Positions 12,350-27,001 of a stretch of 64,000 bases of DNA are shown here, piece after piece; position 1 is the first letter of the stretch, and every line of letters begins with the position of its first letter. The position numbers and the translations under genes are program-made. The stretch is taken from positions 1-64,000 of IMG/VR virus record IMGVR_UViG_3300009431_000002. One strand, 5' to 3'. Source of the stretch: a virus. Lineage: Duplodnaviria; Caudoviricetes. The notes below the pieces were generated by a model that worked only from the letters and a program-made list of their open reading frames with translations, was not told where the DNA came from and did no database searches.

Positions 12350-12352
12350 ACC

Positions 12353-12429: not shown

Positions 12430-12430
12430 G

Positions 12431-12507: not shown

Positions 12508-12556
12508 ACGGGAACTATTCAGTTGTGCATAGGTGCGCCCACCCGGACCGGGCGGG

Positions 12557-12592: not shown

Positions 12593-12598
12593 GAGGGC

Positions 12599-12607
12599 AC
12601 TGTAGCA
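12599..12607 (-). promoter_or_regulatory. Extended -10 promoter TG-C-TACAGT
   Basis: Identical motif at 14181-14189; no good -35. Confidence 0.6.
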
Positions 12608-12622
12608 CAGGAGGTAGGGTTG

Positions 12623-12676
12623 TGGTAGCCCGACCCGGACTCGAACCGGGGACCTTCGGTATCTAGCCGAAGATCC
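12623..12676 (-). pseudogene. 3' half of a tRNA (anticodon arm remnant, T-arm, acceptor strand, CCA)
   Basis: TTCGG-CTAGATA-CCGAA GGTC CCCGG-TTCGAGT-CCGGG TCGGGCT A CCA; overlaps the stop codon of the 12663 ORF; no matching 5' acceptor strand. Confidence 0.7.
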
Positions 12677-13424: not shown

Positions 13425-13433
13425 GCTCAGAGA

Positions 13434-13829: not shown

Positions 13830-13835
13830 GGGGCC

Positions 13836-13864
13836 AGCGTACCTGAGAGCGTCGGGTAGGTCAA
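13836..13864 (-). promoter_or_regulatory. Promoter TTGACC-17-TACGCT, 6 nt before ATG (leaderless)
   Basis: Read directly. Confidence 0.7.
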
Positions 13865-13874
13865 CCGGAGGTGT

Positions 13875-13950
13875 TGGTAGGTCTGGCTGGGCTCGAACCA
13901 GCGACTTCTGCCGTGTGAAAGCAGCACTCTCCCAACTGAGTTACAGACCC
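13875..13950 (-). tRNA. tRNA-Val(CAC)
   Basis: CTGCT-TT CAC AC-GGCAG; CCA encoded. Confidence 0.93.
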
Positions 13951-13988
13951 ACTGACACCGCTGCTCTCCCTAGCTGAGCTACCGGCCC
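13951..13988 (-). pseudogene. 5' half of a tRNA (acceptor strand + D-arm), truncated
   Basis: GGGCCGG TA GCTC AGCTAGGGA GAGC A GCGG... abutting tRNA-Val; no T-arm. Confidence 0.65.
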
Positions 13989-13989
13989 G

Positions 13990-14066
13990 TGGTGGAGGCG
14001 ACAGGAATCGAACCTGCGACCTGCTGCGTGCAAGGCAGCTGCTCTCCCAGCGTGAGCTACGCCCCC
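13990..14066 (-). tRNA. tRNA-Ala(TGC)
   Basis: GCTGC-CT TGC AC-GCAGC; G3:U70; CCA encoded. Confidence 0.95.
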
Positions 14067-14111
14067 ACGGCGAAGATGTAGATGTAGAGGGTCGCTCCCC
14101 GAACCGGGGAG

Positions 14112-14174
14112 CTAGATCGCGGCCACGACAACTGGCAGCGCGAGGAAGACGGAGAGTCGTGCGAGACGTTCCAT
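14112..14174 (-). CDS. Leaderless leader peptide MERLARLSVFLALPVVVAAI (Ala/Val operon)
   Basis: 6 nt after TG-C-TACAGT; hairpin GCTCCCCG-GTT-CGGGGAGC at the stop. Confidence 0.8.
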   Translation of the reverse strand: MERLARLSVFLALPVVVAAI

Positions 14175-14180
14175 GCCGCG

Positions 14181-14189
14181 ACTGTAGCA
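14181..14189 (-). promoter_or_regulatory. Extended -10 promoter TG-C-TACAGT
   Basis: Identical to 12599-12607. Confidence 0.6.
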
Positions 14190-14193
14190 CAAG

Positions 14194-14269
14194 TGGCGCG
14201 AGCTGTGGGAATCGAACCCACCCAGTTGGTTTTGGAGACCAACTCGCCTGCCTTGGGACATGAGCCCGC
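14194..14269 (-). tRNA. tRNA-Trp(CCA)
   Basis: TTGGT-CT CCA AA-ACCAA; atypical D-arm; CCA encoded. Confidence 0.88.
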
Positions 14270-14271
14270 AC

Positions 14272-14347
14272 TGGAACCCCCGACTGGACTCGAACCAGCG
14301 CACGGCGGATTAGAACTCCGCTGCTCTTCCAACTGAGCTACGGGGGC
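14272..14347 (-). tRNA. tRNA-Arg(TCT)
   Basis: GCGGA-GT TCT AA-TCCGC; CCA encoded. Confidence 0.9.
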
Positions 14348-14404
14348 CGACTTGACTGAACTCCCCTACTTGACCGGCTGCTCAAGCGGCCGGGTTTGGT
14401 CAAG

Positions 14405-14480
14405 TGGTACAGACGTCAGGGGTCGAACCTGAAACCACTGGGGCCACATCCCAGCGCTCTGCCAGTTGAGCTACGTCTGC
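14405..14480 (-). tRNA. tRNA-His(GTG)
   Basis: CTGGG-AT GTG GC-CCCAG; A73 and no encoded G-1. Confidence 0.88.
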
Positions 14481-14483
14481 ACG

Positions 14484-14561
14484 TGGTACCCGCGGGAGGA
14501 CTCGAACCTCCGACCTTCCGGTTCGTAGCCGGACGCTCTAGGTCCACTGAGCTACGCGGGC
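14484..14561 (-). tRNA. tRNA-Arg(ACG)
   Basis: TCCGG-CT ACG AA-CCGGA; CCA encoded. Confidence 0.95.
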
Positions 14562-14564
14562 ACG

Positions 14565-14639
14565 TGACCCCGGCAGGACTCGAACCTGCGACCTCCGCGT
14601 CCGGAGCGCGGCGCTCTGGGTCCACTGAGCTACGGGGCC
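14565..14639 (-). tRNA. tRNA-Arg(CCG), CCA not encoded
   Basis: CCGCG-CT CCG GA-CGCGG. Confidence 0.92.
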
Positions 14640-14651
14640 GGTTGTCAAAGA

Positions 14652-14727
14652 TGGCGGTGCCGCCAGGACTCGAACCTGGAACCAGAGCGTTAACAGCGCC
14701 CCGCTCTAGCCATTGAGCTACGACACC
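14652..14727 (-). tRNA. tRNA-Asn(GTT)
   Basis: GGGCG-CT GTT AA-CGCTC; G1:C72; CCA encoded. Confidence 0.93.
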
Positions 14728-14728
14728 G

Positions 14729-14803
14729 TGGTTGCTGCGCCTGGGGTCGAACCAGGGACCTGCCGGTTATGAGCCGGCTGCTCTACCGCTGAGCCACGCA
14801 GCA
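14729..14803 (-). tRNA. tRNA(CAT), elongator Met more likely than Ile2; not initiator
   Basis: GCCGG-CT CAT AA-CCGGC; lacks the GGG/CCC initiator stem. Confidence 0.85.
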
Positions 14804-14806
14804 TCG

Positions 14807-14879
14807 AGGGTCGACCGGGACTCGAACCCGGATCTCCGGATTAAAGGTCCAGGGCGTTATCCATTACGCTCATCGACCC
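14807..14879 (-). tRNA. tRNA-Lys(TTT), CCA not encoded, C33
   Basis: CTGGA-CC TTT AA-TCCGG; acceptor GGGTCGA/TCGACCC. Confidence 0.8.
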
Positions 14880-14880
14880 A

Positions 14881-14956
14881 TGGAGGGTGGAGGGGGACTC
14901 GAACCCCCAACCGCCGGATTAAGAGTCCAGCGCTCTACCTGTTGAGCCATCCACCC
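14881..14956 (-). tRNA. tRNA-Lys(CTT)
   Basis: CTGGA-CT CTT AA-TCCGG; CCA encoded. Confidence 0.95.
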
Positions 14957-14962
14957 GCAGTT

Positions 14963-15008
14963 CTCCGTCTCCACCTGCCGCCCCTTCGGGCAACAAGTAG
15001 ACACGGAG
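14963..15008 (-). promoter_or_regulatory. Long leader hairpin (putative attenuator element)
   Basis: CTCCGT/ACGGAG, TCTACTTG/CAGGTGGA, TTGCCC-GAAG-GGGCGG; G-U pairs work only on the minus strand. Confidence 0.65.
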
Positions 15009-15022
15009 GGGCGGACGCAGAT

Positions 15023-15073
15023 TTACCTGTGCTTGTTCCAGCGGTGCATGAAGGTGGGTCTGACGAAGGTCAT
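15023..15073 (-). CDS. Leaderless leader peptide MTFVRPTFMHRWNKHR (Lys/Met/Asn/Arg/His/Trp operon)
   Basis: ATG ACC TTC GTC AGA CCC ACC TTC ATG CAC CGC TGG AAC AAG CAC AGG TAA, 6 nt after TACGCT. Confidence 0.85.
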   Translation of the reverse strand: MTFVRPTFMHRWNKHR

Positions 15074-15079
15074 GTGGCG

Positions 15080-15108
15080 AGCGTAGACCAGCTCGAGATG
15101 GAGGTCAA
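15080..15108 (-). promoter_or_regulatory. Promoter TTGACC-17-TACGCT
   Basis: Read directly; same hexamers as 13836-13864. Confidence 0.75.
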
Positions 15109-15111
15109 CGG

Positions 15112-15195
15112 ATCCCGACATGAATCCCGACTTCGTGTCGGGATAGCCCCACGCACGTCATCCGGATCCCGACAGGGGTTGACGACACAGTGTCG
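15112..15195. repeat. Operator-like repeats between divergent tRNA promoters
   Basis: ATCCCGAC at 15112, 15124, 15166 and inverted at 15137-15144; palindrome CGACAC-A-GTGTCG at 15183-15195. Confidence 0.6.
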
Positions 15196-15207
15196 CCGTG
15201 CTGTACT
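15179..15207 (+). promoter_or_regulatory. Promoter TTGACG-17-TGTACT, 7 nt before ATG
   Basis: Paralogous to TTGACA-17-TGTAGT at 18744-18772; -10 is non-canonical. Confidence 0.6.
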
Positions 15208-15214
15208 CCGGCCC

Positions 15215-15271
15215 ATGCACTCCTTCGACATCCAATTCGGATTGTCGCTACAGCTCCTGGGTACCCAGTAG
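15215..15271 (+). CDS. Leaderless leader peptide MHSFDIQFGLSLQLLGTQ (Leu/Gly/Gln operon)
   Basis: Read directly; paralog at 18678-18737; followed by alternative GC hairpins. Confidence 0.85.
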   Translation: MHSFDIQFGLSLQLLGTQ

Positions 15272-15327
15272 TCGCCGCCCCCGTACGCCCGTAACCCCGG
15301 GTAGCCGGGGGCGGGAGAAGTGCGTTT

Positions 15328-15413
15328 GGGAGAGTGGCGGAATGGTAGACGCGCGGGTTTCAGGAGCTCGTGTCCTTCGCGGCGTGGGGGTTCGACTCCC
15401 CCCTCTCCCACCA
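15328..15413 (+). tRNA. tRNA-Leu(CAG)
   Basis: CGGGT-TT CAG GA-GCTCG; long variable arm; A73, CCA. Confidence 0.93.
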
Positions 15414-15415
15414 GT

Positions 15416-15500
15416 GCCGGAGTGGCGGAACGGTAGACGCGCGGGTCTGAGGGGCTCGTGTCCGAGTGGCGTCCGGGTTCGACTCCCGGTTCCGGCACCA
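15416..15500 (+). tRNA. tRNA-Leu(GAG)
   Basis: CGGGT-CT GAG GG-GCTCG; long variable arm; CCA. Confidence 0.93.
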
Positions 15501-15514
15501 CAACAAGAACTCGT

Positions 15515-15592
15515 GCGGGAGTAGCTCCAACTGGCTAGAGCAGCGGCCTTCCAAGCCGACGGTTCAGGGTTCGAGCCCCTGTTCCCGCACCA
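15515..15592 (+). tRNA. tRNA-Gly(TCC)
   Basis: CGGC-CT TCC AA-GCCG; A73; CCA. Confidence 0.9.
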
Positions 15593-15593
15593 T

Positions 15594-15671
15594 GTGCCGG
15601 GGCGCAAGGCGTCATAGGGAGAAGGGGACGGCCTCGCTCCTGTTTCGCGTGGGGAAACCCACCCCCGGCAC
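15594..15671 (+). ncRNA. Unclassified tRNA-sized structured RNA
   Basis: 9-bp GTGCCGGGG/CCCCGGCAC closing stem, GTGGG-GAAA-CCCAC arm, two inner hairpins; no TTC loop, no CCA. Confidence 0.5.
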
Positions 15672-15673
15672 CT

Positions 15674-15749
15674 GTGGGCATGGCGCAGTCGGTGGCGCGT
15701 CGGGTTGCCAATCCGAAGGTCGCGGGTTCGAGCCCCGCTGCCCACACCA
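15674..15749 (+). tRNA. tRNA-Gly(GCC) with atypical acceptor
   Basis: TCGGG-TT GCC AA-TCCGA; U2:A71, A73; CCA. Confidence 0.87.
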
Positions 15750-15757
15750 ACAGCTTT

Positions 15758-15846
15758 GCGAGCGTGGCGGAATTGGTATACGCGCCGGATTCAAAATCCG
15801 GTGGTCCTTCGCGGCCGTGCAGGTTCGATGCCTGCCGCTCGCACCA
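15758..15846 (+). tRNA. tRNA-Leu(CAA)
   Basis: CCGGA-TT CAA AA-TCCGG; long variable arm; CCA. Confidence 0.95.
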
Positions 15847-15848
15847 GA

Positions 15849-15924
15849 TGGGGAGTAGTTCAGTTGGTAGAACGGTTGGCTCTGGACCAGCATGTCGGGG
15901 GTTCGAGTCCCTCCTCCCCATCCA
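15849..15924 (+). tRNA. tRNA-Gln(CTG)
   Basis: GTTGG-CT CTG GA-CCAGC; U1:A72; CCA. Confidence 0.93.
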
Positions 15925-15981
15925 TCGTGAAACCCGGCTCGAAATCGGGATAAGGGCCCCGAACCCGAAGCAGGAGGTAGC

Positions 15982-18060
15982 ATGCCCGAATTCAAGCCGT
16001 TCGCCGAGCTTGTCCGATCCGCGTTCCAGGAGATGGCCGCCGGTGGGCTCTTCGTCGTCAACATCAGTGGGGACGACCTGTACGAGTCCTACCTGGGTGC
16101 GTTCCCGGACGGCACCAATCCCGTCTTCCGTGAGCGCACCGAGCACGACTGCAGCAGCTGCAAGCACTTCATCCGCCGCGTGGGCATGGTCATCGACCAG
16201 GACCGCAACACGGTCTGGGACAAGGCCGCCCGAACGGCCGAGTACCCCTACAACGAGGTGGCCTCCGACCTGGCCGCCATGGTCAAGGCCGCTCCGATCC
16301 GCGACGTCTTCCGCGTCCAGGAGAGCGGCATCGGCACCGCCATGAACCGCGGCGTGAGCCCGTCGGGCCAGGTCGAGCGCTGGCACCACTTCCACACCGG
16401 CAGCATCCCGAAGCGCTTCCGCGCGGCGAGCCCGGGGGAGGCCCAGGGCGCGTACCGCACCACCGTCCAGGTCTTCCGGCGCGGGCTGGAGGAGCTGACC
16501 ACCGACGCCCTGGAGACCGTGCTGGCGCTGATCGACGCCAACAACCTCTATCGGGGCGAGGAGCACCGCGAGAAGGTGGCGGGCTTCCTCAAGACGCAGC
16601 AGGAGTTCCTCGACCTCGGCGCCGTTGACCGGGAGCGCTTCGTCTGGGCACGCGCCGACGACCCGGCCACCCGCTTCCGCAACACCGCCATCGGCACCCT
16701 GGTCCAGGACCTGAGCGAGGGCATGGACGTCACGAAGGCGGTCAAGCGGTTCGAGGCGAAGGTCGCGCCGGAGAACTACAAGCGCACCTCGGCCGTCATC
16801 ACCCCCGGCATGGTCAAGGAGGCCATGAAGACCATCACGACGATGGATCTGGAGCCCGCCCTGGAGCGGCGGTTCGCCCGCGTCGAGGACGTCAACGTCA
16901 ACGACGTGCTGTGGGTGGACAACCAGGTCAAGCCGCTGATGGCCGGCGGCCTCGGCGACATGCTCATGGACCACGCCCAGGCAGCGCAGGGCTACGAGCT
17001 CGACGAGAAGCGCGCCGAGGACATCGCCGTCGACGAGTTCCTGGCCAGCGTGCTCCCCGAGGCCGCGGCCGTGGAGCTGCTGCTGAAGACCGCGCACCTG
17101 GGCAACCTGATGTCGCTCACGGCGCCGGTCCACCCGGCGCCCCACCAGCTGTTCCAGTGGGACAACGACTTCGCCTGGTCCTACGCCGGCAACATGGCCG
17201 ACTCCGAGCTGCGCAAGCGCGTGTCCGCCGCCGGCGGACGCGTGGACGGGGCGTTCCGCTTCTCTCACTCGTGGAACCACGACAAGCGCAACGCCTCGCT
17301 GATGGACCTCCACGTCTTCATGCCCGGGAACGGGACCTCGTACTCCCGGCCCGGGACCACCCACGACGTCTACGGCAACAACGAGCGCGTGGGGTGGAAC
17401 CACCGACAGCATCCCAGGTCCGGCGGCGTCCAGGACGTGGACTACGTGAAGGAGGCGCCTCCCGGGTACATCCCCGTCGAGAACATCACGTTCCCCGACA
17501 TCACGCGGATGCGTCCCGGCACGTATATCTGCAAGATCCACAACTGGCAGCTCCGACAGCCCACGCAGGGCGGCTTCCAGGCCGAGATCGAGTTCGGCGG
17601 GCAGGCGTTCACCTACGAGCACCTGGCACCCCTCAAGCACAAGGAGTGGGTGACGGTCGCCACGGTGACGCTGAAGCATGGCGAGTTCTCCATCGAGCAC
17701 CACCTGCCGTGCGGCACGGCCGCCCAGGAGAAGTGGGGCCTGACGTCCGAGCGGTTCGTCAAGGTCAACTTCGTGACCCTGAGCCCCAACCACTGGGGCG
17801 ACAACGCCGTGGGCAACCGCCACACGCTCTTCGTGCTCGACGGCGCGAAGAACGACGAGCCCTGCCGAGGCATCTACAACGAGTTCCTGCACCCCCGCCT
17901 GATCAAGCACCGCAAGGTGTTCGAGGTCATCGGCGACAAGACGAAGTGCCAGCCCACCGAGGGCCAGCTGTCCGGCGTCGGCTTCTCGTCCACGAAGCGC
18001 GACGCCGTGCTCATCAAGATCGACAACCAGCGCCTGTACCGCGTCCGGTTCGGCGCGTAG
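15982..18060 (+). CDS. Large conserved-looking phage protein (692 aa), function unknown
   Basis: AGGAGG RBS; YLxxFPxGTN...EHDCSSCKHFI N-terminal Cys motif; RFSHSWN...MDLHV C-terminal beta domain. Confidence 0.85.
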   Translation: MPEFKPFAELVRSAFQEMAAGGLFVVNISGDDLYESYLGAFPDGTNPVFRERTEHDCSSCKHFIRRVGMVIDQDRNTVWDKAARTAEYPYNEVASDLAAMVKAAPIRDVFRVQESGIGTAMNRGVSPSGQVERWHHFHTGSIPKRFRAASPGEAQGAYRTTVQVFRRGLEELTTDALETVLALIDANNLYRGEEHREKVAGFLKTQQEFLDLGAVDRERFVWARADDPATRFRNTAIGTLVQDLSEGMDVTKAVKRFEAKVAPENYKRTSAVITPGMVKEAMKTITTMDLEPALERRFARVEDVNVNDVLWVDNQVKPLMAGGLGDMLMDHAQAAQGYELDEKRAEDIAVDEFLASVLPEAAAVELLLKTAHLGNLMSLTAPVHPAPHQLFQWDNDFAWSYAGNMADSELRKRVSAAGGRVDGAFRFSHSWNHDKRNASLMDLHVFMPGNGTSYSRPGTTHDVYGNNERVGWNHRQHPRSGGVQDVDYVKEAPPGYIPVENITFPDITRMRPGTYICKIHNWQLRQPTQGGFQAEIEFGGQAFTYEHLAPLKHKEWVTVATVTLKHGEFSIEHHLPCGTAAQEKWGLTSERFVKVNFVTLSPNHWGDNAVGNRHTLFVLDGAKNDEPCRGIYNEFLHPRLIKHRKVFEVIGDKTKCQPTEGQLSGVGFSSTKRDAVLIKIDNQRLYRVRFGA

Positions 18061-18071
18061 AGAGGAGAACT

Positions 18072-18485
18072 ATGGACACCGCCAAGATGTACGAGGTCGC
18101 GCTCCGCAACAAGCTCCGGTTCGAGAGCCCCAAGGGCCCGCTGAGCCTGGAGCACCTGTGGGACGTGCCGCTGCGCTCCCGCACCAACTTCAACCTGGAC
18201 ACCATCGCCCGGACCGCCAGCCGCGATCTCAAGGAGACGTCCGAGGAGAGCTTCGTCGCCACGCGCAAGAGCCCGAAGCAGACGCTGGCCGAGGTCAAGC
18301 TCGAGCTCGTCAAGCACGTCATCGCGGTCAAGCTCGCCGAGGAGGAGAAGGCCGAGAAGCGCGCCGACGCCGTCAAGCGCAAGGAGAAGCTGACGGAGAT
18401 CCTGGAGCGCAAGCAGGACGCCAAGTTCGAGGAGATGGACGAGGCCGCCATCCGCAAGGAGCTCGCCGAGCTCGACGCCTCCTGA
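18072..18485 (+). CDS. Phage protein with coiled-coil C-terminus, partner of the 692-aa gene
   Basis: RBS GAGGAG; KLRFESPKGPLSLEHLWDVPL. Confidence 0.85.
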   Translation: MDTAKMYEVALRNKLRFESPKGPLSLEHLWDVPLRSRTNFNLDTIARTASRDLKETSEESFVATRKSPKQTLAEVKLELVKHVIAVKLAEEEKAEKRADAVKRKEKLTEILERKQDAKFEEMDEAAIRKELAELDAS

Positions 18486-18496
18486 CCCCACGCCCT

Positions 18497-18525
18497 GGGA
18501 GGGCCGGCACGCCGCCGGTCCTCCC
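18497..18525. terminator. Hairpin between convergent units
   Basis: GGGAGGGCCGGC-acgcc-GCCGGTCCTCCC. Confidence 0.55.
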
Positions 18526-18537
18526 GTTAGCTCGGAA

Positions 18538-18622
18538 TGGCGGAGAGGGTGGGAATCGAACCCACACGCCCGAAGACACGAGGTCCTGAACCCCGCGCGT
18601 CTACCAATTCCGCCACTCTCCC
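18538..18622 (-). tRNA. tRNA-Leu(CAG) copy with a Ser-like 3' end (chimera, G73)
   Basis: 5' part near-identical to 15328 copy; 3' end CCCTCTCC G CCA; acceptor pairs only as 6 bp GGAGAG/CTCTCC. Confidence 0.75.
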
Positions 18623-18677
18623 ACACGCACTTCTCCCGCCCCCGGCTACCCGGGGTTCGGGCGTACGGGGGCGGCGA

Positions 18678-18737
18678 CTACTGGATACCCAGAAGCTGGA
18701 GCGACAATCCGAGGACTTGGATGTCGGAGACGTGCAT
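18678..18737 (-). CDS. Leaderless leader peptide MHVSDIQVLGLSLQLLGIQ (duplicate Leu leader)
   Basis: 6 nt after TTGACA-17-TGTAGT; paralog of 15215-15271. Confidence 0.8.
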   Translation of the reverse strand: MHVSDIQVLGLSLQLLGIQ

Positions 18738-18743
18738 GGGGGC

Positions 18744-18772
18744 ACTACAGCACGGCCCGCCAAGCGTGTCAA
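18744..18772 (-). promoter_or_regulatory. Promoter TTGACA-17-TGTAGT
   Basis: Read directly. Confidence 0.65.
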
Positions 18773-18815
18773 GTTCTCGGTATAAGACGGATGAACCTAA
18801 CCACGAGAGGTAACC

Positions 18816-19472
18816 ATGACCACCTGGACCGTTATCGTTGGCAACATCGGCACCGTCTACGAGGGGTGCAACAGCCACGAGGCGCAGCAGTCGTACAAGA
18901 CCTACGTCAGCCTCTCCCAGCAGGGGTACGGCCGGGGGGGTGACGAGGTCGTAACCCTCATCAAGGGCGAGGAGATCGTGCAGGAGCATCTCCCCGACCT
19001 CGACGAGCCCCACAAGGTGAGCGAGGGCACGGACGCCCATGCCTACTACCGCGCTCTGCAGCGGGCCGAGGGGGAACTCCACCAGCTCCAGAAGGACCAC
19101 CGGACCACCCTGGCCCACACCCTGGCCCACAACCAGGCGCAGTCCAAGAAGCTCACCGAGCTGGGCAATACCGTCTCAGCACTGAAGAGCCTACTGCGCA
19201 AGATGGCCGAGCAGCGGCTGCTCGACAAGATTCACCACTTCAGCAGGGACGCCTCCATCGTCCCCAGCGGTCTCCCCGAGGCCAACACCAGCAGCGAGGA
19301 GGAGAGGGCTGCGCTGCGCGCACTCCAGTCCCAAGGCTTGGTGGAGCGAGTGGGGGAACAGCGCTGGGCGGCGTATCGCCTGACCTACGAGGGGCGTACC
19401 CGACGCGACTACCTGCACAACCACTACAACCTCGACGCATCGCTGATGCGCTACCTGACGGAGAACACATGA
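18816..19472 (+). CDS. Hypothetical protein (coiled coil, possible C-terminal winged helix)
   Basis: RBS GAGG; coupled to next gene. Confidence 0.7.
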   Translation: MTTWTVIVGNIGTVYEGCNSHEAQQSYKTYVSLSQQGYGRGGDEVVTLIKGEEIVQEHLPDLDEPHKVSEGTDAHAYYRALQRAEGELHQLQKDHRTTLAHTLAHNQAQSKKLTELGNTVSALKSLLRKMAEQRLLDKIHHFSRDASIVPSGLPEANTSSEEERAALRALQSQGLVERVGEQRWAAYRLTYEGRTRRDYLHNHYNLDASLMRYLTENT

Positions 19473-20713
19473 AGACTGCAACGCTACTCGGCCTCGAAGC
19501 CCAACAGATCAACATCCTCGTGAGCAGGGAGCCCAGCGCGGGCCACAGGTTCTGGATCATCGGACTACCCGCTCACGCTACCGGGGAGACCGCCGCGAGA
19601 GTTCGCGCTGCCATCGTGGCCAGCGGATACGAGTTCCCGTCTGGGGTCTCCGTGCGGCTGTTCCCCGACGACGTGCCCAAGTACGGCACCCACTACGACC
19701 TGCCCATCGCCCTGGCCATCATCGACGCCCTCTACCTCGCCAAGGTGCACTTCACCTCCCACTACCTGCCCGTGGGCGAGCTGGGACTGAACGGTGAGGT
19801 GCGGCCCGTCCGCGGCGTGCTGGCCATGCGCTCGGCGGAGGATCTCAACACCAGTGGAGTCCTCTGCCCCTACGACAACATCGCCCAGGCGGCCATGTAC
19901 CCCGGCGGGGTCGGCAGCGTCTTCGGCGTCCGCACCCTGCAGGAAGCCGTCGCCTACGCCAGCGGGGAGATCGCCGACCCCACTCCGCCTCCTGTGCCGG
20001 TCCCGCCCTCCCAGGACGTCGTCGACATGTACGACGTAAGGGGCCATAAACGGGCCAAAAGGGCTATGGAGGCGGCTGCCGTCAATGGCGCCAACATCCT
20101 CCTGCAGGGACCGGCTGGCTGCGGCAAGACCATGCTGGCCCGCCGGTTCCCTACCATCCTACCTACCATGCACGCGGTGGAGGAGCACGGCGTGGCGCGC
20201 ATCTTCAGCGCCTCCGGTCTGACGGCTCCTGGCGCCGCGGCCTACGTGACCACGAGGCCCTTCCGCGCGCCGCACCACACGTGCTCAGCGCAGGCCCTCG
20301 TGGGCGGTGGGGTGCCTGTCCGCCCCGGCGAGGTCACGCTGGCCCACAACGGAGTGCTCTTCCTGGACGAGCTGCCCGAGTTCCCGCGGGCCGCCATCGA
20401 CGCCCTGCGGCAGCCGCTGAGGGAGAAGAGGGTCACCTTCGCCCGTGCGGGCATGGTCTACGAGTTCCCCGCCAGCTTCCAGCTGGTGGCCGCGGCCAAC
20501 CACTGCCCCTGTGGGAGATTGATGCAGCAGTGCACCTGCAGCAGTGCCGAGCTGCGCCGGTACACGGCGCGCGTCGATGAGCTGGTGGACAAGCTGGAGC
20601 TGGAGGTCATCCAGGTGAAGGGGGCCAACCCCTACCAGCTGTACGACGAGCCCAAGGGCGAAACATCGGAGACCATCCGGGAGCGGGTGGAGGAGGCACG
20701 AAGAAATGACTGA
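19469..20713 (+). CDS. comM: YifB/ComM family Mg-chelatase-like AAA+ ATPase, C-terminally shortened
   Basis: Lon-like N-domain (IGLP...YDLPIALAI), Walker A GPAGCGKT, PFRAPHHT, Walker B LFLDELPEF, CPCG...CTC. Confidence 0.9.
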   Translation: MKTATLLGLEAQQINILVSREPSAGHRFWIIGLPAHATGETAARVRAAIVASGYEFPSGVSVRLFPDDVPKYGTHYDLPIALAIIDALYLAKVHFTSHYLPVGELGLNGEVRPVRGVLAMRSAEDLNTSGVLCPYDNIAQAAMYPGGVGSVFGVRTLQEAVAYASGEIADPTPPPVPVPPSQDVVDMYDVRGHKRAKRAMEAAAVNGANILLQGPAGCGKTMLARRFPTILPTMHAVEEHGVARIFSASGLTAPGAAAYVTTRPFRAPHHTCSAQALVGGGVPVRPGEVTLAHNGVLFLDELPEFPRAAIDALRQPLREKRVTFARAGMVYEFPASFQLVAAANHCPCGRLMQQCTCSSAELRRYTARVDELVDKLELEVIQVKGANPYQLYDEPKGETSETIRERVEEARRND

Positions 20714-21404
20714 CAACTACCAGCAGTGGAGCGAGATCATCGAGGATCTGACGGGCGAGGAGATCGCCTGGATCAACGAAGACCTCCTCCGGTTCAGTCC
20801 GGGGGAAGACGGAGGCATCATCGAGCGTGGCGGGGACACCCTGCTGCTCATCGACAAGAACGGCAACTGGACTCCGCTGGGAGAGCAGTGGCGCGAGAAG
20901 CACCCGGCGTTCACCGAGGACGACTACGCCTGGCCCAGCTTCGACTGGTCCATCAGCACCTACAAGGGAGAGCCCCACATCTGGTTCCGGGGCGACTCCG
21001 GCTGCAACCTGGAGCACCTCGCTGACTTCGTGCACAGGTTCATCAAGAAGTTCCGCCCAGACATGATCTTCAAGCTCACCTGGGCCGAGTGGTGCTCTGG
21101 CCCCCGTGTCGGCGAGTTCGGCGGCGGCTGGTTCGTCGCGCACAAGGGTGGCGTGGAGTGGGGGAACACCTACGAGGACACCAAGATCTGCGCCGACCGG
21201 ATCAAGCACCCCTGGCTGACCGACAGGGTCCAGTTCGCCCGTCTCCTCTGCGAGATGAGCGCCCTGGGACTGCCGGACGGTGAGGACAACTGGGATCTCT
21301 TCAACGACCTGAAGGAGAACATGGACCTCACCGACAATGACATCGACGAGCTGTTCGAGCGCGCCCACAAAGTGTGGGAGGACGCGAAGGAGAGGATGAC
21401 GTAA
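20706..21404 (+). CDS. Hypothetical protein
   Basis: Coupled ORF with typical codon bias. Confidence 0.7.
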   Translation: MTDNYQQWSEIIEDLTGEEIAWINEDLLRFSPGEDGGIIERGGDTLLLIDKNGNWTPLGEQWREKHPAFTEDDYAWPSFDWSISTYKGEPHIWFRGDSGCNLEHLADFVHRFIKKFRPDMIFKLTWAEWCSGPRVGEFGGGWFVAHKGGVEWGNTYEDTKICADRIKHPWLTDRVQFARLLCEMSALGLPDGEDNWDLFNDLKENMDLTDNDIDELFERAHKVWEDAKERMT

Positions 21405-21718
21405 TGGAGGTGCACCCACCTGTGCGGGTGTTCTGCTTCGAGTGTGGAGACGAGATCGAGGTGGTGGACACACAACGAGAAGAAGACGGCTCGCTGTCTG
21501 TCAGCATCTCCGGTGCCTGTGAGCGCGAGTGCCAGCAGGCGGCAGAGAAGTCCTCCTGGGCGGCGCACCAGCGCGAACAGCAGATACAAGAGAGGGCCGA
21601 CCGCCTACTCCGTGAGGAGCGGCAGAACGCCGAAACCGAGCGGTTCCTGCGCGATGAGCGCGACCGCAAAAACAAACAGGATCGCGCCTTCTGGCGCGCG
21701 ATGGGATGGAACCGATGA
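21404..21718 (+). CDS. Hypothetical protein (CxxC Zn ribbon, coiled coil)
   Basis: TAATG coupling; CFEC and CEREC. Confidence 0.6.
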   Translation: MEVHPPVRVFCFECGDEIEVVDTQREEDGSLSVSISGACERECQQAAEKSSWAAHQREQQIQERADRLLREERQNAETERFLRDERDRKNKQDRAFWRAMGWNR

Positions 21719-21951
21719 TCCTGCCTGGCTACAAGACCAACTACGAGACCCTGCTCCGCGCCGCCAAGGCTGGCGACCTGGCGCTGGTGGAGTGCACCAG
21801 CATCGAGACCGGAGAGCCCGTCTTCGTGATCTGTAGCGTCCACGTGAGCGATGGCGAGTACGTCATGACTCCACTGGCCAAGATGTTCGACGGCAACCCC
21901 TACGAGGAGGTGGCTCCTCCCAGCTCGGAGAGGCCAGAGAATGAGAGCTAG
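21715..21951 (+). CDS. Hypothetical protein
   Basis: ATGA coupling. Confidence 0.65.
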   Translation: MILPGYKTNYETLLRAAKAGDLALVECTSIETGEPVFVICSVHVSDGEYVMTPLAKMFDGNPYEEVAPPSSERPENES

Positions 21952-22141
21952 GGTCACCGCCACCCTCGACAAGCGCGTGCTGGCGCTACTCAAGGAGGAG
22001 GCAGCCCGTATGAACACGTCGGTCTCACACTTGATCGAGCGGAGCATCTGGAGGGCAATCAACTCCCCCGAAGGGCTAGGTGTGGACGATGTCGACGAAG
22101 CCATCAACAGGTACAAGGAAAGGAAAGATCATGCCGACTGA
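21941..22141 (+). CDS. Ribbon-helix-helix (CopG-like) DNA-binding protein
   Basis: RVTATLDKRVLALLKEEAARMNTSVSHLIE pattern. Confidence 0.65.
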   Translation: MRARVTATLDKRVLALLKEEAARMNTSVSHLIERSIWRAINSPEGLGVDDVDEAINRYKERKDHAD

Positions 22142-22143
22142 GG

Positions 22144-22587
22144 ATGGGCAGCATGCTACTTCGTGAGGCGCGGGTCACCTACACCAGCAGGCGCATCGAC
22201 CTGAAGCGCAAGTCCCTCAAGGGTTCCCAGGAGGCGTACGACGTGGTGAAGCACATCTTCACCCCGGGAGACCCCCAGGAGCGCTTCTACGTCGTCCTGC
22301 TGAACGCCAAGCACATGTACGAGGGCCACGCGCTGGTGTCTGTGGGGACTCTGGACGCAGCCATCGTTCACCCCCGAGACGTGTTCCGCCCCGCCGTTGC
22401 ACAGAGCAGCGCACTTGTAATCCTGGCCCACTACCACCCCTCGGGCGACCCAACACCTTCCGCAGAAGACGTGGCCGTCACCAAGCGGCTGGTCGCTGCG
22501 GGGGAGGTTCTGGGCATCGACGTACTGGACCACTTGATCATCTCGGATGAGAGCTGGTGCTCCATGCGGGACAGAGGAGAGATATGA
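22144..22587 (+). CDS. radC: RadC-like JAB domain protein
   Basis: VHPRDVF...AHYHPSGDPTPSAED...LDHLII. Confidence 0.9.
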   Translation: MGSMLLREARVTYTSRRIDLKRKSLKGSQEAYDVVKHIFTPGDPQERFYVVLLNAKHMYEGHALVSVGTLDAAIVHPRDVFRPAVAQSSALVILAHYHPSGDPTPSAEDVAVTKRLVAAGEVLGIDVLDHLIISDESWCSMRDRGEI

Positions 22588-22760
22588 GCATCGCCATCAC
22601 CGGGACCCCCAACCGGGAGCGCACCTACGACGCGGGCTTCGGCGGCGCGGACAACCCTTTCCCCGACGACCCCGAGCTGTCCCGCTACTACGAGCTGGGG
22701 CGGCGGTGCCGAACCGATTGGCGGATGGAGCAGGCGATGGGCCGAATGGAGGCCCAGTGA
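22584..22760 (+). CDS. Small hypothetical protein
   Basis: Coupled to neighbours. Confidence 0.55.
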   Translation: MSIAITGTPNRERTYDAGFGGADNPFPDDPELSRYYELGRRCRTDWRMEQAMGRMEAQ

Positions 22761-22966
22761 CCGACCCCAAACAACTGGCCCGGGACCTGTTGCGGGACTT
22801 CGTCAGCGACATGCGCTGGGCCAAGAAGCAGGACGTCGCGTACCTCAAGAAGGTCCGCAAGGAGTTCCAGCTCTTCTGGCCCACCAGGCACAACCCCAAG
22901 TTCGACGAGTTTGGCTGGCCCGTAGTGCTGGCTGAGTTCAGCACCTTCAAGGAGGGAACACCATGA
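22757..22966 (+). CDS. Small hypothetical protein
   Basis: GTGA coupling, GGAGG RBS. Confidence 0.6.
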   Translation: MTDPKQLARDLLRDFVSDMRWAKKQDVAYLKKVRKEFQLFWPTRHNPKFDEFGWPVVLAEFSTFKEGTP

Positions 22967-23202
22967 TCACCTGGGACGCCAAGGCTGTCGTAATCTGGTG
23001 CGGTACGTGTACGGCTCATGGCCGGACACTACGGCTCGAAGTCGAACCGTCAACCCTGGTCGTGGCCGATACCGTCTGGTACTGGCGAGTCCGCGACGAG
23101 GAGGGCGCTGTCCAGAAGAACGGGACGCGGCACTCCGCTCTGCAGGCCAAGGCATCCTGTACCCGAGCGGCTAACAAGTACGCCAAGGCGCCGCGGCCGT
23201 GA
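22963..23202 (+). CDS. Small hypothetical protein
   Basis: ATGA coupling, GGAGG RBS. Confidence 0.55.
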   Translation: MITWDAKAVVIWCGTCTAHGRTLRLEVEPSTLVVADTVWYWRVRDEEGAVQKNGTRHSALQAKASCTRAANKYAKAPRP

Positions 23203-23296
23203 GTGTCCTTGACCAACTCTCTGCCGTCTCGTGCATCGCAGTGGCACTGCTGCTCATCCCCTGTGTCGCGCACCTCATCACTGAAAGGAAAGACCG

Positions 23297-23830
23297 TTGA
23301 TCACCTACGAAGACCTGATCCGTCCGCTCAAGGAGGGCGGGCACTACGAAGTGTCCCCCCAGACCATCTACAGCTTCCTGACGCTCGTCAAGAAGGGCGA
23401 CCGGGCGTTGCTCTACCAGGGCCACATGTTCGACAGCAGCCAGATGGGCAAGACGGCCCTGACCGTAGCTGGCCCCGGCCGTACCATCGACGACCCCGAC
23501 AACCCGCCCAAGCGTATCGGCAACGCGCCGTCCAACTTCAAGGAGCTGGAGGGTGAGGTGGACATCCCCAGCCTCCGCGCGGGCATCAAGGACTTCGACC
23601 CCATCTCACGCGAGAAGTGCGTCGCCGCGGCCGAGAAGTACCTCGGAGACGGGCAGCACGGCGAGCTGCTGTGGGAGACCTACCTCTGCACCATCACCAA
23701 TTCGGGCTACCAGGCAAGCGTGAAGGGTGAGATGACCCCGCTCAAGGAGCTGGGCCTCGTCTCGTACCGAGCGAAGTACCCGGCTGGGTGGACGCTCACC
23801 AGCAAGGCCTGGAAGATCCTGGAGGCGTGA
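23297..23830 (+). CDS. Hypothetical protein
   Basis: AAGGA RBS, TTG start, typical codon bias. Confidence 0.65.
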   Translation: MITYEDLIRPLKEGGHYEVSPQTIYSFLTLVKKGDRALLYQGHMFDSSQMGKTALTVAGPGRTIDDPDNPPKRIGNAPSNFKELEGEVDIPSLRAGIKDFDPISREKCVAAAEKYLGDGQHGELLWETYLCTITNSGYQASVKGEMTPLKELGLVSYRAKYPAGWTLTSKAWKILEA

Positions 23831-24012
23831 TGTCCGACGCACAACGCATCGAACAGCTGGAGGAGCAGGTCGCGCGTGTCCGCCTGATGTGCAAGACCCT
23901 GCTGGAGGAGATCGAGGAGAACCCGGTCGCCCAGGTCGGCAACGCGGCCATGGGCATCCGAACCGCTGTACGGGCGATCAACCACGCCCTGGGCGAGACG
24001 GAGGAGCCGTGA
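23830..24012 (+). CDS. Small hypothetical protein
   Basis: TGATG coupling. Confidence 0.6.
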   Translation: MSDAQRIEQLEEQVARVRLMCKTLLEEIEENPVAQVGNAAMGIRTAVRAINHALGETEEP

Positions 24013-24245
24013 GCCGCATCTCCTGCGGCGTCCCCATCTACAAGCCCAACGATGAGTGCCTCTGGTACTACTGGCTCGACGGCAAGCAGGGCTACTACAG
24101 CGGCTGGCTGTGGGCACGTACCCGCATCGGCGCCCGGCGCAAGATCAAGAAGAAGCACCCCAACAACAGCATCGACTCGGTGCTGCACCAAGACCAGTAC
24201 CACGGTCGCAGTCAGCACTGCCCGTTGGACAGAGGAGGACCATGA
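24009..24245 (+). CDS. Small hypothetical protein
   Basis: GTGA coupling. Confidence 0.55.
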   Translation: MSRISCGVPIYKPNDECLWYYWLDGKQGYYSGWLWARTRIGARRKIKKKHPNNSIDSVLHQDQYHGRSQHCPLDRGGP

Positions 24246-24715
24246 GCAAGTTCGACATCGACTTCGAGACTACCCGAGACGGCACGCGGTGCTGGGGCGT
24301 CATCTACAGGGATGGCGAAGAGGTCTGGAGGGACAGGCCCTGGCCTGCCGACGGCAGCGCCCAGCAGGCGGGCTACGAGAAGCTGAAGAAGCTACGAAAG
24401 GCGGAAGCGGTACTGGATGACGCTTCCCAGGAGGCCCCCAAGTCAGCCAACACGGTCTGCCGTGTTGAGTTTCGGCTCTACTACGACGTCCCAGAGCACC
24501 TCGTCAAACGCGCTGGGGACACCATCATCAGCGCCATCGAGTGCATGGTCGCGGACCACGATGTGGTTCCAGAGGTCCGCACACTTCGGGCCGACGAGGT
24601 GGACCAAGACCTAGTGGACTACGCCCTGGGCTTCCTGGACGAAGGCTGCCCCACCTGTGGCGGCAGCCTGGACGACGGCATCTGCATGAGCGGGTGCGAC
24701 AACCTCCTCCCCTGA
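24242..24715 (+). CDS. Hypothetical protein with C-terminal Zn ribbon
   Basis: GAGGA RBS; CPTC...CMSGC. Confidence 0.65.
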   Translation: MSKFDIDFETTRDGTRCWGVIYRDGEEVWRDRPWPADGSAQQAGYEKLKKLRKAEAVLDDASQEAPKSANTVCRVEFRLYYDVPEHLVKRAGDTIISAIECMVADHDVVPEVRTLRADEVDQDLVDYALGFLDEGCPTCGGSLDDGICMSGCDNLLP

Positions 24716-24759
24716 CAGGAGGCCCGCGTTCTGCAGTGCCTTCTTTCTTAGATCAAAGT

Positions 24760-24848
24760 TGGCGGAGAGGGGGAGAATCGAACTCCCGGCCCTGTCGGGT
24801 CAACGCCTTAGCAGGACGCGGTAGGGCACCAACGCCTACAGCCCCTCC
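24760..24848 (-). tRNA. tRNA-Ser(GCT) with extended D-stem
   Basis: GCGTC-CT GCT AA-GGCGT; D-stem GTAGG/CCTAC; G73, CCA. Confidence 0.85.
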
Positions 24849-24926
24849 TTGCCGCTCGAGCACGCACCCAGAATCACAGAAGCTCCGAACATACCGGCCC
24901 TTTGTTCGGAGCTACTCCGAACATTG

Positions 24927-25012
24927 TGGCGGATGGAGAGCGGATCGAACGCTCGCTGGTGTCCCAGGCCTCGACTTTCCAAGCCGGCACCTTGCCACTC
25001 GGTCACCCATCC
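24927..25012 (-). tRNA. tRNA-Ser(GGA)
   Basis: CGGC-TT GGA AA-GTCG; long variable arm; G73, CCA. Confidence 0.9.
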
Positions 25013-25413
25013 GTGTTGGAGGAGGGTGGGGGATTCGAACCCCCGCACCCAGGGTCACTGGACTCGCCGGATTTCCGGACCTTGACCCCCCTTTTGCGCA
25101 GCTCTGCGCGCCAGGTGCTGTCGCCTAGTGCATCACCTGTGGCGAGGCAGTTGCCCAGGACAGGTACCCGGCAGTGTGCCCTACCGGCAACCCAGTCCTC
25201 CCCCACGTATTCATGGATGCCCCCATCTTGGTCGACGGCGACCATACGGTCGGGAGGAAGGTCGAGTACACGTGACACCTGCGTCCAGACGTCGTCGATG
25301 ACATCGGGGCTGTGCCTAGACCGCGTAGCATGCCAAGGGACCGTGGGAAGTGCCCCAGCGAAACAGGTCCGCACGATCACAATGGCGTCCTCGTTGGCGC
25401 CGTGCTCACACAT
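25003..25413 (-). CDS. Hypothetical protein reading through the tRNA remnant
   Basis: Start MCEHGANED overlaps the HNH stop; C-terminus encoded by tRNA-like sequence. Confidence 0.5.
   Translation of the reverse strand: MCEHGANEDAIVIVRTCFAGALPTVPWHATRSRHSPDVIDDVWTQVSRVLDLPPDRMVAVDQDGGIHEYVGEDWVAGRAHCRVPVLGNCLATGDALGDSTWRAELRKRGVKVRKSGESSDPGCGGSNPPPSSNTDG
25017..25091 (-). pseudogene. tRNA-like remnant lacking D-arm and anticodon (possibly ex-Ser(TGA))
   Basis: Acceptor GGGGGGT/ACCCTCC, CCGGA-AA-TCCGG arm, variable hairpin, perfect T-arm, T CCA. Confidence 0.65.
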
Positions 25414-25876
25414 CGTTTTTCTTCTCCAGTCCGTAGTGCTCCTCGGCGTGGCAGTTGGGGCACAGCAGCTCCAGGTTCTCTGGGTCGTCCGTGCCCCCGT
25501 CAGCGCGGTGCACCTTGTGGTGCACAATCAGGATTTCCGGCAGTCGGTTATACGGGCACCGCTCACACTGCTCTCCACGGAGCTCCCCGAGCATCTTCCG
25601 GAGACGCTTCTTGCGCGCCATGTGGCTATTAGGTTGTCCCTGCCCATATTTGATGCCTGTCCTTTTCTTGTTCGAGCAGGCCTTGCTGCAGGTGATCCTG
25701 CGGCTGTTACCGGCCAGAAACTCGTCGCCGCACACCGGACAGGTCTTCGGCTTCCTGCACCACTTCCCATAGCAGGCCTTGCTGCAGAAGACCTTTCCGC
25801 TCTTCGAGTTCAGATCGCGCTTCCTCCGGTAGACGGGCTTCTCGCAGACAGCACACTCGGCATTGGGTTTGTGCAT
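25406..25876 (-). CDS. HNH endonuclease with N-terminal Cys/Zn fingers
   Basis: IVHHKVHRADGGTDDPENLELLCPNCHAEEH; TG-C-TATGAT -10 upstream. Confidence 0.92.
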   Translation of the reverse strand: MHKPNAECAVCEKPVYRRKRDLNSKSGKVFCSKACYGKWCRKPKTCPVCGDEFLAGNSRRITCSKACSNKKRTGIKYGQGQPNSHMARKKRLRKMLGELRGEQCERCPYNRLPEILIVHHKVHRADGGTDDPENLELLCPNCHAEEHYGLEKKNDV

Positions 25877-25909
25877 GATATGAAATCATAGCACACCCAA
25901 TACCAGAAG

Positions 25910-25995
25910 TGGCGGGCAGGGTGGGAGTCGAACCCACGGAGCTTTCGCCCACTGGTTTTCGAGACCAGCACCATAAGCCACTCGGACACCTGCCC
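25910..25995 (-). tRNA. tRNA-Ser(CGA)
   Basis: CTGGT-CT CGA AA-ACCAG; G73, CCA. Confidence 0.95.
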
Positions 25996-26193
25996 TCACT
26001 TCTGCTTGGGCGGGTCGGCCTTCTCTCGTGCCTTACCAGACTCGGCCAACCCTCCCAGTCGCTCGATCCGCAGACCGTAGTGGTGGGTTGACTCACCTGG
26101 CTTCAGCGCCGCCATCTTCATGCCGAGCCCGGGCTCGTTCCATGGCGCGTCGGCCAGCACCTCCGCATGCTTCTCTCGTCTGTCCTCGGCCAT
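25996..26193 (-). CDS. Small hypothetical protein inside tRNA operon
   Basis: GGAGG RBS before MAEDRREK. Confidence 0.6.
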   Translation of the reverse strand: MAEDRREKHAEVLADAPWNEPGLGMKMAALKPGESTHHYGLRIERLGGLAESGKAREKADPPKQK

Positions 26194-26242
26194 CTGGGCC
26201 TCCGTTTTGCAACCCAACGTCCTTGACAGGACGGGCATCTTG

Positions 26243-26330
26243 TGGTGGGCCGGGGAGGGATCGAACCTCCAGGGTCGCAATGACTCCGGGTCTACAGTCC
26301 GGCGCGCTTCCAGTTACGCTCTACCGACCC
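26243..26330 (-). tRNA. tRNA-Tyr(GTA)
   Basis: CCGG(A)-CT GTA GA-(C)CCGG; variable arm; CCA. Confidence 0.9.
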
Positions 26331-26346
26331 ACGTGTATTCAGTTGT

Positions 26347-26422
26347 TGGCGGAGACGACGGGGCTCGAACCCGCTACCTCCCGGGCGACAGCCGGGCGTC
26401 CTTCCACCAGGACCTCGTCTCC
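26347..26422 (-). tRNA. tRNA-Asp(GTC)
   Basis: CCCGG-CT GTC GC-CCGGG; G73, CCA. Confidence 0.95.
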
Positions 26423-26425
26423 GCA

Positions 26426-26501
26426 TGGTGGATCGGGCTGGAGTTGAACCAGCGGCACCGAGATTTTCAGTCCCGTGCTCTACCTGCTGAGCTACCGATC
26501 C
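26426..26501 (-). tRNA. tRNA-Phe(GAA)
   Basis: CGGGA-CT GAA AA-TCTCG; CCA. Confidence 0.95.
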
Positions 26502-26504
26502 ACA

Positions 26505-26580
26505 TGGAGCAGGCATCCGGACTCGAACCGGAGATGACCGGAGCTGCAATCCGGCGCCTTACCAACTTGGCTATGCCCGC
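26505..26580 (-). tRNA. tRNA-Cys(GCA)
   Basis: CCGGA-TT GCA GC-TCCGG; U73, CCA. Confidence 0.95.
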
Positions 26581-26591
26581 TCAAACCTCTG

Positions 26592-26637
26592 CTCTCCCAT
26601 CCTGCGCCCCTTCGGGGCCAGGACAGGTCACGGAGAG
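26592..26637 (-). promoter_or_regulatory. Long leader hairpin homologous to 14963-15008
   Basis: CTCTCC/GGGAGAG, TCCTG/CAGGA, GCCCC-GAAG-GGGC. Confidence 0.65.
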
Positions 26638-26649
26638 ACGCAGACGCAG

Positions 26650-26712
26650 TTATGCGGAGTCGCTATCGAAGCAATAGGAAGACGATGACAGGAGGGGTGC
26701 AGCGGTGTGCAT
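26650..26712 (-). CDS. Leaderless leader peptide MHTAAPLLSSSSYCFDSDSA (Cys/Phe/Asp/Tyr/Ser operon)
   Basis: ATG CAC ACC GCT GCA CCC CTC CTG TCA TCG TCT TCC TAT TGC TTC GAT AGC GAC TCC GCA TAA, 6 nt after TACGGT. Confidence 0.88.
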   Translation of the reverse strand: MHTAAPLLSSSSYCFDSDSA

Positions 26713-26718
26713 GGGGCG

Positions 26719-26747
26719 ACCGTACCTCAGCCTGTCGAGGAGGTCAA
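26719..26747 (-). promoter_or_regulatory. Promoter TTGACC-17-TACGGT
   Basis: Read directly. Confidence 0.75.
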
Positions 26748-27001
26748 CGACGAAAGAGCGTCTCCAGTGCGCGGCGGACCAGCTCCCAGACGGGATAGGA
26801 CTCCCGCGGGTAGTCGAGTACCTCACACTCCCGCTGGACGCGGTCAGTGGTCCCGCGCCGCATCAGGCTCACGTCGTAGTTCCCGCGACGGGGGTGGTCG
26901 GGGTGGACACCGAAGCCCTGATTGGCGAGGGTCATGCGGCCGATCTCACGCTTCCGCCGCTCGCTCCCGCCAGGCCACAGCTCGATGCGGACTACGATCA
27001 C
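26744..27001 (-). CDS. Small hypothetical protein
   Basis: Coupled to 26998..27210. Confidence 0.65.
   Translation of the reverse strand: MIVVRIELWPGGSERRKREIGRMTLANQGFGVHPDHPRRGNYDVSLMRRGTTDRVQRECEVLDYPRESYPVWELVRRALETLFRR

Follow-up and report, generated by a model that had tools for sequence, protein, structure and literature searches.

Ribosome-mediated transcription attenuation is best known from the leaders trpL, hisL, leuL and pheL, from the multivalent thrL and ilvL, in which several amino acids are tested in one leader, and from pheM, which precedes the pheST synthetase genes and shows that genes of the translation apparatus can be controlled in this way. In these systems, a short leader open reading frame (ORF) enriched in codons for the relevant amino acids, often rare synonymous ones, is separated from the regulated genes by an RNA hairpin, and stalling of the ribosome typically increases transcription. 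Two other described systems are also relevant here: (i) the polycysteine short-ORF attenuators of mycobacteria, where a ribosome stalled in a leaderless short ORF physically blocks an RNA duplex that hides the ribosome-binding site of a downstream protein gene, and where several independent units answer to the same input (a "ribulon" according to the authors; Canestrari et al., bioRxiv 10.1101/834739), and (ii) the pyrBI attenuator of E. coli, where a ribosome that keeps close to the polymerase until the end of the leader suppresses an adjacent canonical terminator, the sensed variable being polymerase speed (UTP) at a U-rich pause region. In all of these cases protein genes are regulated. Phage tRNA genes, in contrast, are usually discussed as codon-usage helpers or as replacements for tRNAs lost to host shut-off or defence nucleases, and how their expression is regulated is essentially unknown. 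No description of leader peptides or short ORFs controlling tRNA genes was found in the literature searched, which does not cover most subscription journals.

To investigate whether a phage tRNA cluster is preceded by such a leader, we examined a 64,000-nt window, the first 64 kb of a 201,921-bp virus record with 67% G+C (Duplodnaviria; Caudoviricetes; IMG/VR record IMGVR_UViG_3300009431_000002). All 29 tRNA calls of the genome lie between 12.2 and 26.6 kb, and 28 of them are confirmed by Rfam. The original prediction, of a leader whose eleven consecutive residues SSSSYCFDSDS match the tRNAs of the operon behind it, was confirmed. The ORF has 20 codons plus a stop codon, and its residues 9-19 are all Ser, Tyr, Cys, Phe or Asp, the amino acids of the seven tRNAs downstream. 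The four different tandem Ser codons (TCA, TCG, TCT and TCC), the later AGC and the use of both Asp codons (GAT and GAC) are exactly as had been described. However, the accompanying claim that every Ser isoacceptor class is represented among the operon's tRNAs is not right for TGA, as no intact tRNA-Ser(TGA) gene is present. The two halves of a split tRNA were joined in silico, but this gave no clear tRNA-Ser, and it could not be shown to be the missing Ser(TGA). TCA is the one cognate codon of this leader that none of the cluster's tRNAs reads under standard wobble rules (10 of 11 readable). No other leader-like ORF was found upstream of the last two Ser tRNAs, and the six Ser codons of the leader imply that they share its operon, which would then extend down to position 24760.

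Listing the short ORFs upstream of every tRNA block showed that this locus, termed unit G, is one of six units (A to E and G), each consisting of a promoter-like box, a neutral N-terminus, cluster-specific test codons, a stop codon, a GC-rich hairpin and the first tRNA. The features and their positions are listed below.

Features of the six leader-tRNA units (positions in the 64,000-nt window)
Feature	Positions	Strand	Description
85-aa ORF	26744-27001		Upstream of unit G; its TGA stop is overlapped by the -35-like box
-35-like box, unit G	26742-26747	-	TTGACC; 26747 is also the upper limit of the region in the original prediction
-10-like box, unit G	26719-26724	-	TACGGT, 17 nt after the -35 box and 6 nt before the ATG; predicted transcript starts at the A of the ATG (leaderless)
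Leader ORF G	26650-26712	-	MHTAAPLLSSSSYCFDSDSA; ATG 26712-26710, TAA 26652-26650
Test segment, unit G	26656-26688	-	Codons 9-19 (SSSSYCFDSDS); 11 cognate codons, 10 distinct, 4 rare A/T-ending
Hairpin, unit G	26585-26647	-	Two-tier, GC-rich; starts about 3-5 nt after the stop and ends 4 nt before tRNA-Cys; -36.2 kcal/mol (z = -3.6); no U-tract, only UUUGA
tRNA genes, unit G	26243-26580	-	tRNA-Cys(GCA), tRNA-Phe(GAA), tRNA-Asp(GTC), tRNA-Tyr(GTA)
tRNA gene, unit G	25910-25995	-	tRNA-Ser(CGA)
HNH endonuclease gene	25406-25876	-	Inside the tRNA operon
tRNA genes, unit G	24760-25012	-	tRNA-Ser(GGA), tRNA-Ser(GCT)
Leader A	12557-12592	-	MRWLTPPTTII; before tRNA-Ile, tRNA-Thr and tRNA-Pro; hairpin starts at the stop codon
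"Ser(aga)" call	12623-12699		No Rfam support
Leader B	14112-14174	-	MERLARLSVFLALPVVVAAI; before tRNA-Ala and tRNA-Val; hairpin starts at the stop codon
Leader C	15023-15073	-	MTFVRPTFMHRWNKHR; before Lys, Lys, Met, Asn, Arg, Arg, His, Arg, Trp; shares a scaffold with unit G
Leader D	15215-15271	+	MHSFDIQFGLSLQLLGTQ; before Leu, Leu, Gly, Gly, Leu, Gln
Leader E	18678-18737	-	MHVSDIQVLGLSLQLLGIQ; paralog of D; before a single tRNA-Leu(CAG)

The leader-by-cluster matrix is diagonal, apart from the paralogs D and E, which both score highest on cluster D, and each leader contains every amino-acid type of its own cluster. Although codons beginning with T (Ser, Tyr, Cys and Phe) would be favored in any pyrimidine-rich intergenic stretch, a chance origin is very improbable: a run of 11 or more residues from {S,Y,F,C,D} occurs only twice in the six-frame translation of the whole genome, the expected number in a 120-nt upstream window is 6e-4, and the product of expectations over five independent units, whose amino-acid sets are quite different, is about 3e-11.

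Synonymous codon use in the leaders is also non-random. Compared with the phage's own codon usage, taken from 141 long high-GC3 ORFs, the 42 degenerate cognate codons of five leaders include 37 that are distinct within their leader (26.5 expected) and 15 that end in A or T (3.6 expected), and none of 20,000 simulations was as extreme. This is what would be expected of a decoding sensor, and it agrees with the impression in the original prediction that synonymous codons are being sampled. However, only 33 of the 44 cognate codons can be read by the cluster's own tRNAs, and in leader A neither Pro codon is the one read by the phage tRNA-Pro(CGG). The match is therefore complete at the level of the amino acid and not of the phage tRNA species.

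In all six units, a TAnnnT-like box ends 6-7 nt before the ATG, and none of the six ATGs has a Shine-Dalgarno sequence. Units C, D, E and G also have TTGAC 17 nt upstream, while units A and B have an identical extended -10, TGTGCTACAGT. The full geometry (TTGACN, 16-18 nt, TRNNNT, 5-7 nt, ATG) occurs eight times in the genome and never in five Markov shuffles. Four of the eight are tRNA leaders and three head ordinary ORFs of 79-140 aa, including a Pfam-supported PDDEXK_5 gene whose independently called start is that same ATG. This supports leaderless transcripts beginning with the start codon, although no RNA run was found to hold this phage.

Every stop codon is followed by a GC-rich hairpin, starting 0-5 nt after the stop in units A, B, D, E and G but 14 nt after it in unit C, and ending 4-29 nt before the first tRNA. 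All six are more stable than dinucleotide shuffles, with z values of -1.8, -2.1, -5.6, -2.4, -2.4 and -3.6, the last being unit G. None has a U-tract, and a consensus scan found no canonical terminator at unit G, so termination is assumed here. Hairpins at convergent gene ends elsewhere in this genome (39746, 52430, 129195, 163193 and others) also lack U-tracts; therefore, the post-leader hairpins may be of the genome's own putative terminator style, acting as a terminator or a long pause. Unlike in the mycobacterial attenuators, no ribosome-binding site lies downstream and only tRNAs follow, so control would have to act on transcription or RNA fate, and here each unit tests a different set of 2-6 amino acids.

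The units also appear to have evolved as modules. Units C and G share the promoter, the ATG position, the sequence just after the stop and the hairpin core, but their test segments are unrelated, and each fits its own cluster. Units D and E are 91% identical through the first tRNA; their leaders differ by, among others, two synonymous Leu changes and one added Leu codon, and their hairpins by one loop base. Both patterns are what selection on the encoded amino acids would produce. It is unlikely that the short ORFs are real, and perhaps translated, but do not regulate, with the hairpin serving as a processing, stability or insulating element for the pre-tRNA transcript. The lack of U-tracts and of expression data would be compatible with that view, as would the expectation that read-through transcripts from the upstream 85-aa gene carry the ATG without a Shine-Dalgarno sequence, so that the hairpin would form on them. 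However, this explains neither the cluster-specific match in six units, nor the synonymous diversity, nor the rewriting of the test segment on a shared scaffold. Sensing without a ribosome, by direct codon-anticodon pairing of the leader RNA with the tRNAs as in a T-box specifier, appears very unlikely. The codons are by definition complementary to the anticodons of several downstream tRNAs, but 11 of 44 triplets have no complementary phage anticodon, and the synonymous differences between D and E keep the amino acid and not the triplet. In addition, the cognate triplets are contiguous and in one frame, opened by an ATG at the predicted +1 and closed by a stop within 0-1 codons of the run, and an Rfam scan of 12000-27000 at E up to 0.1 gave only tRNAs and chance-level hits, with no T-box or other known leader at any unit.

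Taken at the sequence level, leader G is probably a translated, cis-acting decoding sensor of the leader-peptide kind, reporting how fast a ribosome decodes Ser, Tyr, Cys, Phe and Asp codons, although translation and any response to stalling are inferred. In this view, the host RNA polymerase would start at the A of the ATG, and a 70S ribosome would load on the 5' end and follow it. To investigate how the hairpin might be affected, we modeled a ribosome with its A site at each codon, covering 13 nt downstream, and refolded the free RNA. In units A, B, D, E and G, the hairpin keeps all or nearly all of its pairs for stalls at most test codons, being lost, or in G reduced to its 11-bp apical stem, only with the A site at the last 2-3 codons or the stop. 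No alternative antiterminator pairing was found. In unit C, the model selected a minor 2-bp helix, so we rely there on the hairpin folding described above, which places the main hairpin beyond the reach of a terminating ribosome.

Two directions of control could follow from this, and the choice between them is unresolved. We lean, weakly, toward (i) a licensing direction, in which a ribosome that passes all test codons in step with the polymerase prevents the hairpin and lets transcription run into the tRNAs, whereas a ribosome lagging at any test codon leaves the hairpin to form and attenuate. The logic would resemble the coupling at pyrBI, with ribosome speed as the input, and the mycobacterial system offers a precedent for occlusion. 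The tRNAs would then be made only when charged tRNAs are available, a virus-encoded, amino-acid-specific and stringent-like control of stable RNA. Speculatively, the phage would avoid making tRNAs that cannot be charged, which would also explain why all synonymous codons of an amino acid are sampled. This reading is tentative, because the direction is opposite to that of the classical leader-peptide attenuators, unit C does not fit the occlusion geometry, a terminating ribosome in G leaves the apical stem intact, and making tRNAs only when decoding is already good has no obvious benefit.

The alternative, somewhat less favored but still possible, is (ii) a demand or depletion sensor, in which a ribosome stalled at the test codons (tRNAs scarce, uncharged or cleaved, for example by host anticodon nucleases) increases transcription of the tRNA operon, and smooth decoding shuts it down. 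As far as is established, all characterized leader-peptide attenuators work in this direction, rare codons, which are enriched here, make classical leaders more sensitive, and making tRNAs on demand is the more obvious benefit to a phage. However, stalls at most test codons leave the hairpin fully formed, and by occlusion alone, stalls at early and late test codons would give opposite outputs. For the 11 of 44 codons that the cluster's own tRNAs cannot read, including both Pro codons of leader A, the product could not close a feedback loop. An effector that we could not see would be needed, such as an unrecognized alternative fold or Rho loading on the vacated C-rich leader RNA, as in the tna operon. 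Leader G is strongly C-rich and G-poor (C 0.40, G 0.17), in the top 1% of 60-nt windows, and C exceeds G in all six leaders, but five of the six C-G skews are unremarkable, and leader A, at only 36 nt, is too short for a typical rut site. In either direction, it is possible, although less likely than not, that six such sensors together govern all 28 well-supported tRNA genes of the phage. Such a system would extend leader-peptide attenuation to stable RNA genes, and the units, at about 130 nt, would be compact enough for use as amino-acid-specific or tRNA-specific sensors.

A comparable arrangement was found in Caulobacter phage CcrBL9 (MH588546.1), with which no sequence similarity was detected. 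There, a 32-codon ORF starts 7 nt after a TTGACA-17-TATAAG promoter and carries the run YRQFVRQIQSVRVNR, with codons for R, Q, F, V, I and N, ahead of Val, Ile, Val, Gln, Asn, Arg and Phe tRNAs. By inspection, it has the classical design, with 13 further codons after the test run, a canonical U-tract terminator before the first tRNA, and a near-copy of the terminator's 3' arm inside the leader, in keeping with the demand direction. In the present phage no antiterminator was found, there is no U-tract, and the hairpin abuts the stop. The recurrence of the same logic with a different RNA design in an unrelated phage argues for a general need.

No diverged relative with these units could be recovered, and there is thus no cross-species covariation in support of them. 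A blastn search of the unit against 50,697 phage records hit only tRNAs of unrelated phages, and exact or degenerate patterns from the D/E hairpin, the G test segment, the tRNA-Cys 3' end, the D/E leader and the C test segment found nothing in IMG/VR or JGI metagenomes. The neighboring DUF932 protein has no close relative in IMG/VR or among phage records, the 85-aa ORF has no phage match, and DUF8224 homologs at 60-82% identity lie on contigs without the tRNA clusters. A ComM-like gene gave only distant cellular hits, and the host remains unknown. A syntenic contig at 42% DUF932 identity has three tRNAs and no leaders, although one of those tRNAs sits directly behind a promoter-like box. A second assembly of the same phage, of 201,918 bp, has identical leaders and so gives no information on selection, but its Tyr-Asp-Phe block is about 23% diverged between identical flanks. 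Finally, four marine DNA runs hold a relative whose contig aligns at about 87% to the leader-C unit and has a different tRNA order.

Within the tRNA operon of unit G (a promoter, leader, hairpin, and tRNA block), two halves of a type-II (Ser/Leu-like) tRNA were found, in which the acceptor strands are complementary (GGAGGGT / ACCCTCC). The two halves flank about 1 kb holding tRNA-Ser(CGA), the HNH endonuclease gene, and 390 nt more. This is either (i) a tRNA disrupted by a mobile HNH cassette or (ii) a very large insertion. Although this could be the missing Ser(TGA), joining the halves in silico gave no clear tRNA, and the Rfam search returned a weak tmRNA-like hit at 25017-25091. The same operon also differs between the two assemblies compared here. 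The second, 201,918-bp assembly (L010, JGI sample 3300013120) is identical to the present one over 7 kb, and over 11 kb around units A-E, with the exception of a block covering tRNA-Tyr, tRNA-Asp, and tRNA-Phe, which differs at about 75 positions (roughly 23%) while all three tRNA identities are kept. This block looks like a tRNA cassette exchanged by recombination with a related phage.

Possible atypical or incomplete tRNA sequences were also observed elsewhere. Just upstream of leader A, ARAGORN calls a 77-nt "tRNA-Ser(aga)," whereas the tRNA model of Rfam gives no match at E up to 0.1. A Ser tRNA of 77 nt without a long variable arm would be abnormal; however, the sequence does have a good T-arm and an ACCA end, and it may be a degenerate or atypical tRNA. 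In addition, a 39-nt stretch between tRNA-Ala and tRNA-Val looks like the 5' part (acceptor and D-arm) of a tRNA and is probably a gene fragment.

Features in and around the tRNA region; positions are those of the window unless a contig is named
Feature	Position	Strand
Two halves of a type-II (Ser/Leu-like) tRNA with intervening sequence	25017-26055	minus
5' acceptor and D-arm start	about 26055	minus
T-arm plus acceptor 3' strand and CCA end	about 25017	minus
Weak tmRNA-like Rfam hit	25017-25091	
Block of tRNA-Tyr, tRNA-Asp, and tRNA-Phe differing from L010	26185-26504	
ARAGORN call "tRNA-Ser(aga)"	12623-12699	minus
Probable tRNA gene fragment	13951-13989	minus
Unit E mini-operon	18496-18776	
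GC hairpin at the end of unit E	18496-18526	
tRNA-Glu(TTC) of contig L006	L006 7592-7668	
Repeat cluster between units C and D	15109-15174	
DUF8224 (PF26675) protein	15982-18060	plus
Three ORFs behind the shared promoter geometry (131 aa PDDEXK_5, 140 aa, and 79 aa)	13829, 23019, and 57896	minus

Unit E is a complete mini-operon, consisting of a promoter, a leader, a hairpin, and one tRNA-Leu(CAG), followed by a 13-bp GC hairpin that is shared with the end of the convergent plus-strand gene. The leader of this unit still carries Gly and Gln codons although only a Leu tRNA follows, which fits a recent duplication of the start of unit D. Over the whole genome, the phage has tRNAs for every amino acid except Glu. 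The syntenic relative L006 (a contig) has a tRNA-Glu(TTC), which sits directly behind a promoter-like box with no leader ORF.

Between the divergent promoters of units C and D, four copies of ATCCCGAC/GTCGGGAT, including two 12-nt copies of CGGATCCCGACA and a 13-nt inverted repeat, cluster within 66 bp. Each outer copy lies just upstream of a -35 box, and only two other copies occur in the 64-kb window. This is a candidate operator for a DNA-binding regulator acting on both tRNA operons. The 692-aa protein encoded next to tRNA unit D belongs to DUF8224 and has over 2,000 metagenomic homologs at 50-82% identity, many of them on contigs of 60-185 kb; this is therefore a large uncultured phage group of unknown function.

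The promoter geometry (TTGACN / 16-18 nt / TRNNNT) is not confined to the tRNA leaders, as three protein-coding ORFs, one of them a PDDEXK_5 gene, start 5-7 nt after the same arrangement. Therefore, leaderless expression seems to be used for early protein genes of this phage too.
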